DNA of 64,000 bases from Candidatus Shapirobacteria bacterium (GCA_018052565.1 JAGPNC010000003.1:587-64586), one strand, 5' to 3'. Positions 41,365 to 44,770 are shown, numbered from the stretch's first letter. Notes: a model not told the origin generated them from the letters alone. Numbers and translations are program-made.

Positions 41365-41438
41365 TGCGCCTGGCCGGATTTGAACCGGCAATCTTTGGCT
41401 CCGGAGGCCAACGCTTTATCCAATTAAGCCACAGGCGC
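41365..41438 (-). tRNA. tRNA-Arg (anticodon CCG)
   Basis: Manual cloverleaf fold: acceptor GCGCCUG, anticodon loop CUCCGGA, T-loop UUCAAAU, 74 nt. Confidence 0.8.
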
Positions 41439-41816
41439 GGAAAAAGTATTAAGTATTATGTATTAGGTATTAAGTTATAGAATCAAAAGTCAAAAAAGAA
41501 CAAAAGGCAAGAGATCATTAAATCACGAGATTAAAAGGATAGCAACTCGTAACTAGTAATACGTCATTCTGACCCCACTCTGACGGGGGAAAAATTTCCT
41601 TCGCTTCGCTCATGGGCAGGATAACGATTGGGCGTAATTTGTTTTTGACAAAAGCGCTCTTAAGCGACGATATACTTTTTAAACCACCGTCTGCGGTGGC
41701 AGGCAGGAAAAATCCGTCGGCTCACGGTTAAAAGTTATCCTCCCACCGCAGATCGTTTTTTAATTTTTTCCTGCCCGCCGAAACCCCATCGTGTACAGGC
41801 ACGCCGGCAGGAAAAT

Positions 41817-42095
41817 TTATAAATTATTTTTCATCCAATCAGTTACTTCTTTTGAAACATTAAAAGTAGCCCAGCCTGTTCGCGTTACATCAATTACTAA
41901 TACCTTATCATTAGCATCAATTTTTGATTTTATTTCGTCTCGAACTTCAGAAACAGTCTTTGTGGTTTTAACAAGCCAAACAGATTGGAGCGGTTTGGCC
42001 CAATAAGGATATGATTTAAGATATTGAGATAGAAGTTTGTAGTCTTCGTATGTTTCGGGCAATCCCAAATCGTAAGTTATTAAAAAAGTATTCAT
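41817..42095 (-). CDS. small protein with Cas2/VapD-like sequence pattern (function unknown)
   Basis: A 92-aa ORF. It starts MNTFLITYDL, then runs …YPYWAKPLQSVW…DKVLVIDV, which parallels the Cas2 layout (ß1 YD, YG-RVQ-SVF, D-x-V-R-Y). Confidence 0.35.
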   Translation of the reverse strand: MNTFLITYDLGLPETYEDYKLLSQYLKSYPYWAKPLQSVWLVKTTKTVSEVRDEIKSKIDANDKVLVIDVTRTGWATFNVSKEVTDWMKNNL

Positions 42096-42105
42096 ATTTT
42101 TCCGT

Positions 42106-42396
42106 TTATTTCTCGCTACTTGCCTTAAAATAATAACCGATTATAAAACCAAGTGGCCCAGACAATATACCAGAGATAGCGAGTAGAAGATCTTTATTAT
42201 CTTGAATGCTATATTCTTTTAAAGTGCTAATCGATAAAGCAGCGGCTACTATCGCAAGGTATGCAATCACATAAATAAGGGCTATGTAGCTTCTTGTTGA
42301 TTCTCTTTTGGTCGCTCTCTGTTCTGCTGGGCCAGCAAGTTGGCTAGCCCCCGGCGGCGTTAAATCATCTATGTTTTGTTTTTCCTTCATCGCCAT
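42106..42396 (-). CDS. small two-TM membrane protein
   Basis: A 96-aa ORF. Confidence 0.35.
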   Translation of the reverse strand: MAMKEKQNIDDLTPPGASQLAGPAEQRATKRESTRSYIALIYVIAYLAIVAAALSISTLKEYSIQDNKDLLLAISGILSGPLGFIIGYYFKASSEK

Positions 42397-42398
42397 AA

Positions 42399-42647
42399 TT
42401 ATAAATCTCGTACATTGATTACTTCTCTTTTGCCATCTTTGGTTTCAATAATAATTTTGTATTCCCCGGCATCCTTAATAGCGTCTATTATTTTTATTCC
42501 TTTAACTAAAACATCTCCAAGCTTATCTTCCGAAATAGAAAGGTAATTGGCTAACTCTTTGAGTTTTTTCAACGCACTATTACCAAAACTAACATCGAAC
42601 CTTTCTTGTGTTTTTCTTTGTTCGGTTGTTGGCTTATTATTTTCCAT
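42399..42647 (-). CDS. hypothetical small protein
   Basis: An 82-aa ORF whose start overlaps the upstream gene. Confidence 0.35.
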   Translation of the reverse strand: MENNKPTTEQRKTQERFDVSFGNSALKKLKELANYLSISEDKLGDVLVKGIKIIDAIKDAGEYKIIIETKDGKREVINVRDL

Positions 42648-43476
42648 ATCTAATTTTTTTATATAAATTATCGAAAATTTCTAAAATCTCTTTGTCTTCG
42701 CTAACATTTTTCAAGTAGCCGTCTACATCTTTATATTTCATCGTTAAAAATTCTTTGAAAAGTTTTTCGCCACGATAAATATATGTTTCTTCCGGCACAT
42801 AAATATTCCCTTTCATTATTTTCCGGTTGAAGTAATAAAGAATCGGCTTTAATTTTTTCGTGTCTTTAATTCCAAGTTTTTTAACTAAACCGGCATAAGT
42901 TTTCAAGAATTTTCTGTTTATATCAACAAACTTTCCGGTGTCGTGATCGTCGTTATATTTCAATTCAACATAATAGTAAATTCCGTTCTTGTCTTGGAAC
43001 AAGACGTCAACATCGTGCTTCATGGTGATTAAGTTTTTGTCTGATTGCTGATAGGCAACAATATTTTTTAATAGCTGTTCAAATTTTTTGGAAAGTTTGC
43101 TGTCATTATTATTTTGTCTGTCAGAAATAAAACGATCTATTAAAGAATCGGTTTCTTCGGTCAAAGACAGAATGACATTTTTCTTTCCGGAGATTTCTTC
43201 AACAATTTTGAGCCGTTTTTCTTCTGCGATAATTCTTTGCATTAAAACTTCAATGAAATTTCCGAACTGGATGTTTAGGGATTGCAGCAGGCCGCCAAAT
43301 ATTCTATATGTCGTCGGCACAAAATGGACTTTTGCCGCATGTTTTGCCACAATTTGTGAAATTTTCTTTTCCGAAGTGGTATTAGCAAGCAAATCCAAGA
43401 CAGACGCCTTAATTAACTTTTTTATTTTATTGTTTTGCATATTGTAAATTTGTTCTTTTCGAAGGCCTTTCCCCAA
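42637..43476 (-). CDS. putative Type II restriction endonuclease (PD-(D/E)xK candidate)
   Basis: Immediately downstream of the MTase and overlapping it by 50 nt. A D…VELK motif (DVLFQD…[10 protein letters not shown]). Very AT-rich. Confidence 0.45.
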
Positions 43477-44260
43477 AAAGATTATTATCCTGCAATTCTT
43501 TAAGTCTGTTTTTAATTATCGGAATATATTTTTTTTCTTTTTCAATCATTATATAGTTCCTTCCGTGTTTTTTTGCCGCAAATCCTGTAGTTCCTGTTCC
43601 CGCGAACGGGTCAAAAACTATATCGCCGCTCTTGCTTGTTGCTAAAATAATCCTTTCAAGCAAGGCTAAGGGTTTTTGTGTTGTGTGAACTTTTTTGCCA
43701 AGCCTATCTTTTATCCGCTCATTCCCATTACAAATTGGGAAATACCAATCACTTCTCATTTGTTTTCCTTGGTTATATCGTTTCATTAGTTCGTAATTAA
43801 AAGTATATCCTTTCGCTTTATCATCTTTTGAGGCCCAAATCAAAGTTTCGTGAGCGTTGGTAAATCTTACGCCTCTGAAATTAGGCATAGGGTTTGACTT
43901 AATCCAAACAACATCATTTAAAATCCAAAAACCCAAATCATGCATGATTTTCCCCACTCTAAAAATATTATGGTAAGAACCAATTACCCAAAAAGTTCCG
44001 GTTCTTTTAAGTATTCTTCGGCATTCTTTGAGCCATTGCTCGGAAAACTTATCATATTCATCAAACCCATCAAACTTATCCCATTCATCATTAACCGCAT
44101 CAACTTTTGTCATATTAGGCCTTATCAATTCGTTTCGGAGTTGAAGATTATAAGGGGGGTCGGCAAAAATTAAATCAATCGAGTTATCGGGCATTTCTTT
44201 CATCACTTCCACACAATCGCCTTCTATCACCTTATTTATATATTCGCTTATTGGCTTCAT
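43427..44260 (-). CDS. DNA methyltransferase (beta-class N6-adenine/N4-cytosine MTase)
   Basis: [12 protein letters not shown] catalytic motif, followed by the C-terminal [10 protein letters not shown] AdoMet motif. Confidence 0.85.
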
Positions 44261-44462
44261 ATTTAGAGAGTTAACCTTATTATTTTACTTGATTTTTAAT
44301 AATAGTTCAAATTTCGCCAGCGCGCCTGCGCGCGATAGGGTTTCGGTGAGCGGGTAAAATGAAGGGGGCTTTATAGTAAGAAATTTTTCGTCCGCAAGCC
44401 GACAGATTTTTCCTACTCACCGTTGCAAGCAGAATAATGCGGAGAACGCGTCGCGAATAAAC

Positions 44463-44552
44463 TGGCGGAGGGAGGGAGATTCGAACTCCCGTGGACAATA
44501 ATGCCCGCAAGGTTTTCGAGACCTGCCAGATAAGCCACTCCTGCATCCCTCC
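44463..44552 (-). tRNA. tRNA-Ser (anticodon CGA), long variable arm, CCA encoded
   Basis: Manual fold: acceptor GGAGGGA, anticodon loop CUCGAAA, long extra arm, T-loop UUCGAAU, 90 nt. Confidence 0.75.
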
Positions 44553-44599
44553 AAAAAAAACGCCTAAATTTAAACTAAAGACGCTAATTATAGCTAGGT

Positions 44600-44695
44600 C
44601 AAAATTCAAAATTTAAAATTCAAAAGTGAGGTAAAAAGCTTTTAGCTTTTAACTTGTAATTTTGAATTTTGCCTTTTGCATTTTGAATTTTTTTA
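44600..44695. repeat. AT-rich palindromic spacer element (between tRNA-Ser and tRNA-Arg GCG)
   Basis: ggtcaaaattcaaaatttaaaattcaaaagtgaggtaaaaagc… mirrored by ttttagcttttaacttgtaattttgaattttgccttttgcattttgaattt. Confidence 0.75.
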
Positions 44696-44696
44696 G

Positions 44697-44770
44697 TGCG
44701 CCTGGGGCGATTTGAACGCCCAACCGCCAGCTCCGCAAGCTGATGCTCTATCCAGTTGAGCTACAGGCGC
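44697..44770 (-). tRNA. tRNA-Arg (anticodon GCG as read)
   Basis: Manual fold: acceptor GCGCCUG, D-arm GCUCAACUGGAUAGAGC, anticodon stem UCAGC/GCUGG, loop UUGCGGA, T-loop UUCAAAU. Confidence 0.7.

Follow-up and report, generated by a model that had tools for sequence, protein, structure and literature searches.

Bacteria of the candidate phyla radiation (CPR) are known to rely heavily on restriction-modification (R-M). R-M systems carried on genomic islands have already been documented in Patescibacteria (PMC12455944). Among small two-protein systems, the type V toxin-antitoxin (TA) pair GhoT/GhoS of E. coli consists of a membrane toxin, GhoT, and GhoS, a Cas2 homologue that neutralises it (PMC4010927). 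The VapD toxin, too, is a member of the Cas2 superfamily, and a toxic role has been proposed for solitary Cas2 homologues carried by mobile elements (PMC3506569). Here we describe an islet located in a stretch of 64,000 nucleotides (hereafter, the window) from a metagenome-assembled genome of Candidatus Shapirobacteria, within Microgenomates (GCA_018052565.1, JAGPNC010000003.1:587-64586). The islet is a horizontally acquired segment of 3,024 bp (41439-44462, minus strand), inserted exactly between the genes for tRNA-Ser(CGA) and tRNA-Arg(CCG), that carries a predicted HinfI-type R-M pair followed by three small genes encoding proteins of 82, 96 and 92 amino acids (aa), denoted p82, p96 and p92. 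We assign a probability of roughly 0.6 to the interpretation of the islet as an acquired operon that combines a conventional R-M unit with a separable triplet functioning as a TA or abortive-infection device. The structural conclusions, that is, the insertion, the identity of the R-M pair, the modularity of the triplet and its association with defence genes and tRNAs, are jointly very likely to hold.

Each of the closest described systems is matched in part by this locus. As in the HinfI R-M system, the two R-M genes are adjacent, co-oriented and overlapping, the restriction endonuclease (REase) scores above the HinfI-family equivalog cut-off, and the methyltransferase (MTase) is closest to enzymes of the CcrM/M.HinfI type, with the same motif order; unlike in that system, three extra genes are packed translationally onto the 3' end of the operon. 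Compared with CcrM, the islet MTase (277 aa) lacks the C-terminal domain of ~100 residues, the profile match ending around position 252 of 350. The p96-p92 combination resembles GhoT/GhoS in uniting a small membrane protein with a Cas2-type, ferredoxin-like-fold protein of ~90-100 aa, and among the structural matches to p92, GhoS (2llz) comes second. However, no sequence similarity to either GhoT or GhoS is detectable in p92 and p96, the two genes are in the opposite order, p96, at 96 aa, exceeds GhoT (about 57 aa) in length, the islet contains a third gene, p82, and PIN nucleases and other proteins also serve as partners of p92. With Cas2 and VapD, p92 shares the beta-alpha-beta-beta-alpha-beta fold and an invariant Asp at the end of strand 1, and relatives with tandem p92 domains fit a dimeric protein. 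It differs from Cas2 by an extra C-terminal helix and a distinct set of invariant Trp residues, and all matches to Cas2 models are sub-threshold; neither Cas1 among the neighbours of p92 in the ~30 loci examined nor a CRISPR array in the window or the related loci was found. A three-gene operon in which a small, tentatively ribbon-helix-helix (RHH)-like first protein is followed by a two-protein unit is also typical of the tripartite TA systems of the omega-epsilon-zeta type, but p96 and p92 are unrelated to epsilon and zeta, and p82 is dispensable in many loci that contain p96-p92 only. Finally, like genomic islands at tRNA genes, the insert lies directly 3' of a tRNA, has an atypical composition, is missing in relatives and occupies a hotspot, whereas, in contrast to such islands, it contains neither an integrase or recombinase nor a duplicated tRNA 3' fragment, is far smaller (3 kb) and is bracketed instead by a 48-nt imperfect inverted repeat.

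Insertion into a conserved tRNA cluster

DNA from other loci (identified by L numbers) was retrieved for comparison, with relatives of the window found via the flanking DnaG gene. In the closest relative, L030, the flanks are syntenic (the genes for a 593-aa protein, SmpB and ComF and, further on, for a 189-aa protein and DnaG), with protein identity of 80-86%. In L030 and L041, tRNA-Ser(CGA) and tRNA-Arg(CCG) are separated by only 4 nt, in L036 by 14 nt and in L048 by 40 nt, compared to 3,024 nt in the window. Because these tRNA genes are adjacent in the relatives and far apart here, the segment 41439-44462 is an insertion into a conserved cluster of three tRNA genes. The first gene of the ancestral cluster, tRNA-Arg(GCG) (44696-44770; Rfam tRNA score of 65.3 bits), is 98.7% identical to its counterpart in L030 (5206-5281). 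The 3' end of the second, tRNA-Ser(CGA) (44463-44552), forms the upstream boundary of the insertion, and tRNA-Arg(CCG) (41364-41438) has been cut off from its cluster. All three, located on the minus strand, were recovered with ARAGORN and Rfam at the places given in a preliminary description of this DNA; no other known RNA family was detected with Rfam in the non-coding flanks, for which the folding z-scores are modest (-1.65 and -2.14). That description had correctly set the island between tRNA genes but drew it somewhat too wide, the insert proper lying slightly inside the span that it gave.

The composition of the five islet genes, described earlier as AT-rich, indeed deviates from that of the surrounding genes. 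Against a baseline of 57 open reading frames (ORFs) in the window, with GC content of 0.427±0.052 and GC content at third codon positions (GC3) of 0.425±0.079, four of the genes have a GC content of 0.32-0.35 and the p96 gene of 0.41; the GC3 of the five is 0.24-0.36, that is, 1-2 standard deviations under the window mean. Conceivably, the block could be native and vertically inherited, its AT-richness reflecting local compositional variation: other low-GC stretches do exist in the window, including a second AT-rich block (58057-63255) with an even lower GC content (0.28-0.33), and two other assemblies, L001 and L002, contain an identical block in an identical context. This explanation is extremely improbable. 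L001 and L002 are 99.9% identical to the window, flanks included, and come from the same population, whereas in the closest distinct relatives the block is missing at the syntenic site and the tRNA genes are adjacent, the opposite of what a native block would show; furthermore, the triplet is 61-80% identical across CPR superphyla. Being the same locus in the same population, L001 and L002 were rejected as independent insertion contexts and say nothing on mobility.

The p92 and p82 proteins are, respectively, 80% and 78% identical to proteins from Jacksonbacteria (Parcubacteria group), whereas the DnaG proteins are only 40-60% identical among closer relatives. This identity, far above the divergence of housekeeping genes, indicates recent transfer. 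The junction itself has been targeted more than once: L042 contains a different insert of ~1.1 kb (1459-2543, with a 249-aa ORF) between tRNA-Ser(CGA) and tRNA-Arg(CCG), and L030 an extra gene for a 435-aa membrane protein (3472-4779) adjoining tRNA-Arg(CCG). Thus, the tRNA cluster is a recurrent insertion hotspot.

A HinfI-type pair and a separable triplet

The five minus-strand ORFs of the islet, which have the lengths reported previously, encode the MTase (277 aa, 43427-44260), the REase (279 aa, 42637-43476), p82 (42399-42647), p96 (42106-42396) and p92 (41817-42095). The MTase matches PF01555 (4.1e-68), the PADLOC model MTase_II (3.2e-136) and the CcrM structure 6pbd (3.5e-107), and has the motif order of the beta class, with DPPY at residue 34 followed by FxGxG at residue 219. 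Against the CcrM model NF050803, the protein scores 438.7 bits, short of the cut-off of 830, with the match covering profile positions 3-252 of 350; the shortfall arises because the protein ends where the C-terminal domain of CcrM would begin. By these matches, it is predicted to be a beta-class N6-adenine MTase similar to CcrM and M.HinfI, devoid of the CcrM C-terminal domain, in agreement with the earlier assignment to the beta class. The second protein, previously only a candidate for a PD-(D/E)xK-like nuclease, can be placed more precisely: it matches the HinfI model NF045831 (restrict_HinfI) over its full length (residues 15-276 on profile positions 2-264) with 355.3 bits, well above the cut-off of 175, in addition to PADLOC REase_II (1.3e-81) and PF09520 (1.3e-08), and contains a D...ELK motif within residues 146-173. 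These matches identify it as a Type II endonuclease of the HinfI family. No solved structural relative was found for it among the PDB entries, and a tblastn search of the plasmids in PLSDB yielded no match to a HinfI-type REase. From the family membership of both proteins, the recognition site is predicted to be GANTC.

The coordinates of the REase follow an ORF call with a TTG start, which produces the 50-nt overlap with the MTase gene noted originally. Given that the HinfI profile match begins at residue 15, the ATG at 43440 appears to be the better start and possibly the true one; in that case, the overlap shrinks to 14 nt. The REase and p82 genes overlap by 11 nt, and the gaps between p82 and p96 and between p96 and p92 are 2 nt and 10 nt, respectively. 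Judging by this tight spacing alone, the five genes likely form a single operon. A candidate sigma-70-like promoter (TTGAAC-17-TAAAAT, 44282-44310, minus strand) is located inside the insert, 22 nt ahead of the start of the MTase gene. It was recognised solely by its similarity to the consensus, and such sites are no commoner in this region than in shuffled sequences.

The homology of the cassette to other loci does not extend to the R-M pair. In five loci (L142, L145, L003, L021 and L018), DNA similarity to the window cassette, at 65-73% identity, is limited to 42607-41817, which begins shortly inside p82 and ends with the stop codon of p92. In four of the six loci, the triplet comes directly after a Type II R-M pair, and these pairs are unrelated to one another. 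The CcrM-like MTase and HinfI-family REase of the window are replaced by a 528-aa MTase and a PF09520-family REase without blastp similarity to the window REase in L145/L146, by a CcrM-like MTase and a MutH/Sau3AI-like REase in L018, and by a divergent 365-aa MTase and a DUF4268 protein in L142; in L003 and L021, no R-M genes are present upstream of the triplet. These comparisons show p82-p96-p92 to be a separate module that is mobile independently of the R-M pair. We found no paper in the literature that describes it.

The module also shows an affinity for tRNA genes. In the window and in L145, L018 and L138, a tRNA gene on the same strand ends 37-202 nt ahead of the cassette; outside the window, these are tRNA-Val (694-770) in L145, tRNA-Ser(GGA) (4853-4940) in L018 and tRNA-Ser(TGA) (3881-3959) in L138, at distances of 37-81 nt. 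No recombinase was found in the cassettes of L145, L018 and L138, which belong to three unrelated genomes. Since there are only a few dozen tRNA genes in a megabase genome, we informally estimate that such proximity in four loci is far above chance.

The core of the module is the p96-p92 pair. Without p82, this pair is present in L009, within a system composed of a Dam MTase, DUF6996-6997 and another MTase, as well as in L016, L029 (next to a DndB-like gene), L138 and the viral contigs L112-116. In L132-134, which represent at least 14 places, it is embedded in a Type III-like operon, with mod on one side and res on the other. L023 contains an operon of the same family as L133, with Mod 65% and Res 82% identical, but there an unrelated protein with two transmembrane segments and a coiled coil takes the place of p96, whereas p92 is kept. 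Other partners are found as well: a PIN_8 or PIN_12 nuclease is coupled directly upstream of p92 in L007, L012, L013 and L026, and an IS200 transposase precedes it in L024. The spacing from the stop codon of the partner to the p92 start ranges from a 4-nt overlap to a 13-nt gap. The downstream neighbours of p92 across loci include MmeI, Shedu SduA and Type III Res; in L017, an SduA-like Shedu nuclease lies 3' of p92. Altogether, defence genes (R-M, MmeI, Shedu, DndB) adjoin p92 in about half of the ~25 non-redundant loci. The earlier idea that the small genes might be accessory or abortive-infection partners of the R-M system is supported by this recurrent association, and any functional link is putative.

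In three loci (L015, L017 and L019), the gene arrangement upstream of p92 is yet another one: a LexA-like S24 peptidase is followed by a conserved soluble protein of 77-93 aa (MTKKNFHSVPWDGDWAVKKEG...) and then p92. The window itself encodes a Type III R-M system on the plus strand in the second AT-rich block (58057-63255), with a Mod of 636 aa (PF01555 and TypeIII_RM_meth) and a Res of 863 aa (ResIII). Between the two lies a gene for an unannotated 233-aa protein with a C-terminal multi-transmembrane region (59960-60661), a layout that parallels the loci in which mod is followed by a two-transmembrane protein, p92 and res, although no p92 follows the 233-aa gene. We considered this protein as a homologue of the p92 partners and rejected the possibility, there being no sequence similarity.

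The position of the triplet behind R-M genes could have a regulatory explanation, namely, that the small genes make up a control unit in which the RHH-like p82, similarly to a controller (C) protein, times the expression of the REase after transfer, with post-transcriptional help from p96 and p92. No helix-turn-helix C protein was found in the cassette, the start of p82 overlaps the REase stop codon by 11 nt, the triplet follows an R-M pair in four of six loci, and the pair is inserted between mod and res in the Type III-like operons, all of which would fit such a role. Nevertheless, we consider it unlikely: triplets and pairs also occur without R-M nearby (L003, L021 and L138), p92 is associated with Shedu and PIN nucleases and stands alone in phages, controller proteins are normally encoded upstream of the REase or co-transcribed ahead of it rather than downstream, and the membrane protein would have no obvious role.

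Proteins of the triplet and their possible function

The best characterised of the three proteins, by comparative analysis, is p92. Its AlphaFold2 (AF2) model (pLDDT of 89.9) comprises a beta-alpha-beta-beta-alpha-beta arrangement and a C-terminal helix, and the top Foldseek matches are Cas2 (2i0x, 4es2, 1zpw), GhoS (2llz) and BPSL1038, with template-modeling scores of 0.55-0.74; GhoS ranks second (E-value of 4.5e-3, probability of 1.00, template-modeling score of 0.59). The Cas2-like character proposed in the preliminary description thus finds support in the fold. At the level of profiles, p92 reaches 17 bits with the Cas2 models of PADLOC (1.2e-3, sub-threshold), and one family member, P0183, scores 20.5 bits with Pfam Cas2 (5.6e-4), for which the gathering score is 23.8. 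The p92 family has 3,464 representatives at 50% clustering, nearly all of ~90 aa, and corresponds to the phage protein family phrog_1090 (1.6e-22), with no Pfam or NCBIfam counterpart. Among the invariant residues are Y8, D9, R52 and D63, together with four Trp. In three rare family members (P0234, P0253 and P0268), the p92 domain is repeated in tandem, two- or threefold, and one of these proteins also has a helix-hairpin-helix DNA-binding motif at the C-terminus; this architecture hints that p92 functions as an oligomer on nucleic acid. Solitary relatives of p92 are encoded in 50 sequenced temperate phages; in the Enterococcus phage phiFL1A, the gene has the same direction as the lysogeny genes, and in a P2-like Klebsiella phage, it adjoins the portal gene.

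As described originally, p96 has two hydrophobic, transmembrane segments, which start around residues 33 and 69; the second helix is Gly-rich and near-invariant (SGILSGPLGFIIGYYF). For this protein, 226 homologues were found. All family matches are sub-threshold, including that to the SLATT-type PADLOC model RTasSLATT (E=0.013, 13 bits), and the Pfam SLATT domain was not matched. For p82, only 14 homologues were found, all from triplet-type loci. The AF2 model (pLDDT of 80.7) contains two helices (23-35 and 40-60), a hairpin (64-78) and strand-like residues. Foldseek returned nothing significant, only weak matches to CopG and Arc, and no Pfam, NCBIfam or PHROG family was matched. The weakness of these matches, the only recognisable ones, makes it tentative to regard p82 as a soluble, RHH-like protein with a C-terminal beta-hairpin.

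Combining these observations, we propose the following scheme. The MTase would protect the host sites, predicted to be GANTC, and the HinfI-family REase would cut unmethylated incoming DNA. The p96 protein would be a small two-helix, membrane-damaging effector, and p92 a Cas2-fold neutraliser or regulator of p96, just as GhoT, the membrane toxin, is silenced by GhoS, an RNase with the Cas2 fold; p82, which is not always present, would act as an autoregulator of the RHH type. The module could then serve to stabilise the islet, as an addiction cassette, or else to provide an abortive-infection backup once restriction fails. Considered by itself, the mechanism of the triplet, a GhoT/GhoS-like TA or abortive-infection unit in which the variable upstream gene encodes the effector, is the best supported of the readings considered, yet a tentative proposal by analogy, to which we give less than even chances. 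It is suggested by the fold match of p92 to GhoS and Cas2, by the effector-like partners of p92 (two-transmembrane proteins and PIN nucleases), by the tight coupling of partner and p92, and by the solitary prophage copies of p92, which are apparently harmless.

The opposite assignment of roles, with p92 as the toxin, an endoribonuclease of the VapD/Cas2 type, and the upstream gene (here, p96) as the antitoxin, would draw on the presence of VapD in the Cas2 superfamily and on the solitary, mobile Cas2 homologues proposed to be toxins (PMC3506569). The order of genes, antitoxin and then toxin, would be that of classical type II systems, and the invariant acidic and basic residues of p92 suggest catalysis. 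Yet the upstream partners are highly heterogeneous and themselves effector-like (PIN_8 and PIN_12 nucleases, two-transmembrane proteins), and many p92 genes are solitary, in prophages as well as in other genomes, where an unopposed toxin would kill. These solitary copies lacking a coupled partner make a toxic p92 improbable.

The small genes might also have no functional connection to restriction, being hitch-hiking cargo, for instance, a phage-derived superinfection-exclusion or membrane module, that merely shares hotspots with R-M systems. Membership of p92 in phrog_1090, its co-directionality with lysogeny genes in temperate phages, the tendency of defence islands to gather unrelated mobile genes, and the general attraction of the tRNA junction for inserts, as in L042 and L030, all are in line with this possibility. 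What shared hotspots hardly explain is the embedding between mod and res, where p92 is kept while the membrane partner is swapped, or the translational coupling to the preceding REase, so that we deem mere cargo a rather poor explanation.

Several observations weigh against the proposed scheme, both in its R-M and in its TA part. Lacking the C-terminal domain of CcrM, the MTase has to be assumed to be active and specific for GANTC, and no specific depletion of this site is seen in the window: the observed/expected ratio of GANTC is 0.77, within the range of 0.69-0.83 for other GC-containing palindromes of the NNnNN form. The likeness of p92 to Cas2 and GhoS is at the level of the fold only, with Foldseek E-values between 3e-3 and 5e-2; p92 gave no match, Cas2 included, when the PDB sequences were searched with a profile, and none of the islet proteins matched the Pfam models of GhoS, GhoT or Cas2 above threshold. 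Even at E<=1, neither p92 nor p96 matched the GhoS and GhoT models of Pfam and NCBIfam. The effector gene precedes that of the Cas2-fold protein, the reverse of ghoS-ghoT. The most conserved component is p92, with the invariant D9, R52 and D63, which would be odd for a simple antitoxin; such conservation is compatible with an enzymatic antitoxin of type V. The RHH assignment of p82 has no statistical support.

Borders of the insert and broader implications

Searches against Pfam, PADLOC and NCBIfam detected no recombinase or integrase domain in the five islet genes. The direct repeats of tRNA 3' ends that the preliminary description had suggested looking for at the borders were not found: the best matches between the tRNAs and the insert score 8-9, the same as the shuffled controls. 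Of the "classic" tRNA-island signature claimed there, the insertion, the composition and the hotspot hold, and the integrase and the tRNA-derived direct repeat are missing. A 191-nt direct repeat (41285-41475 and 44617-44807) was considered as a duplication of an attachment (att) site and rejected because it is made up of the paralogous tRNA-Arg genes, a scattered AT-rich hairpin repeat and a short AT-rich repeat upstream.

The coding block is flanked on both sides by the arms of a 48-nt imperfect inverted repeat, for which the alignment score is 39, compared to 14.8±2.2 (maximum of 25) for shuffled sequences. The left arm (41765-41814) starts 3 nt past the p92 stop codon and also forms a local hairpin; the right arm (44316-44361) lies upstream of the promoter-like site. 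The core of the repeat, CCGAAACCCYATCG, is restricted to the two arm sites within the window. A second inverted-repeat pair (41705-41727 and 44392-44414) is also present; these nested repeats are GC-rich, and every arm is also part of a local hairpin. The bracketing repeat was rejected as the end of a recurrent mobile element because its core was found in none of the other loci retrieved, and not in the sequences flanking the L145 cassette either. The inverted repeats may be a remnant of transposon ends, an operator, a terminator or an insulator.

A 32-nt sequence is present in two exact copies (41444-41475 and 44783-44814, 100% by blastn), each directly upstream of a tRNA-Arg gene, despite the fact that the tRNA-Arg genes themselves are just ~75% identical. 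The L030 sequence differs at the corresponding position. This pattern suggests recent duplication or conversion, and the copy may be a promoter or another upstream element that restores the expression of the displaced tRNA-Arg(CCG).

AT-rich, hairpin-forming repeats of the AAAATTCAAAATT type, with units of 7, 14 or 20 nt, occur genome-wide and are present in more than 10 intergenic regions of the window (for example, 24134-24353, 31188-31271, 39758-39873, 40325-40415, 41240-41363, 44598-44695 and 57231-57286). They are often located 3' of genes, including both tRNA-Arg genes, and may be terminator-like elements or elements resembling repetitive extragenic palindromes or miniature inverted-repeat transposable elements (REP/MITE). 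Elsewhere in the window, a near-perfect tandem repeat (28917-29037; 5.8 copies of a 21-nt unit with 98% identity) probably lies inside a 155-aa ORF (28791-29258).

The islet and its R-M pair are ordinary, adding another HinfI-type system in a CPR bacterium. What is new is the repeated attachment of the triplet, or of the pair, to R-M operons, together with the preference for tRNA-adjacent sites. In the broadest interpretation, p96-p92, with or without p82, would be a widespread accessory defence module in which a Cas2-fold protein controls an exchangeable effector, be it a pore-like two-transmembrane protein, a PIN nuclease or another protein; the module would be a suicide or addiction arm recruited into R-M operons, in some cases between mod and res, and would spread by insertion directly downstream of tRNAs with no recombinase of its own; as a whole, this generalisation is doubtful. 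The p92 family itself is large (~3,500 clusters at 50% identity), coincides with phrog_1090 and has no known function, although, in many phyla, its members adjoin R-M, MmeI, Shedu, DndB-like and PIN genes, and they are also found in temperate phages. If p92 acts like GhoS in regulating exchangeable effectors, TA logic similar to that of type V would reach well beyond E. coli, and the islet would exemplify the coupling of restriction to a suicide or addiction arm. The insertion of the cassettes 37-202 nt downstream of tRNAs, with no recombinase encoded in them, raises the testable question of how defence cassettes of this size are mobilised in reduced genomes possessing competence genes.

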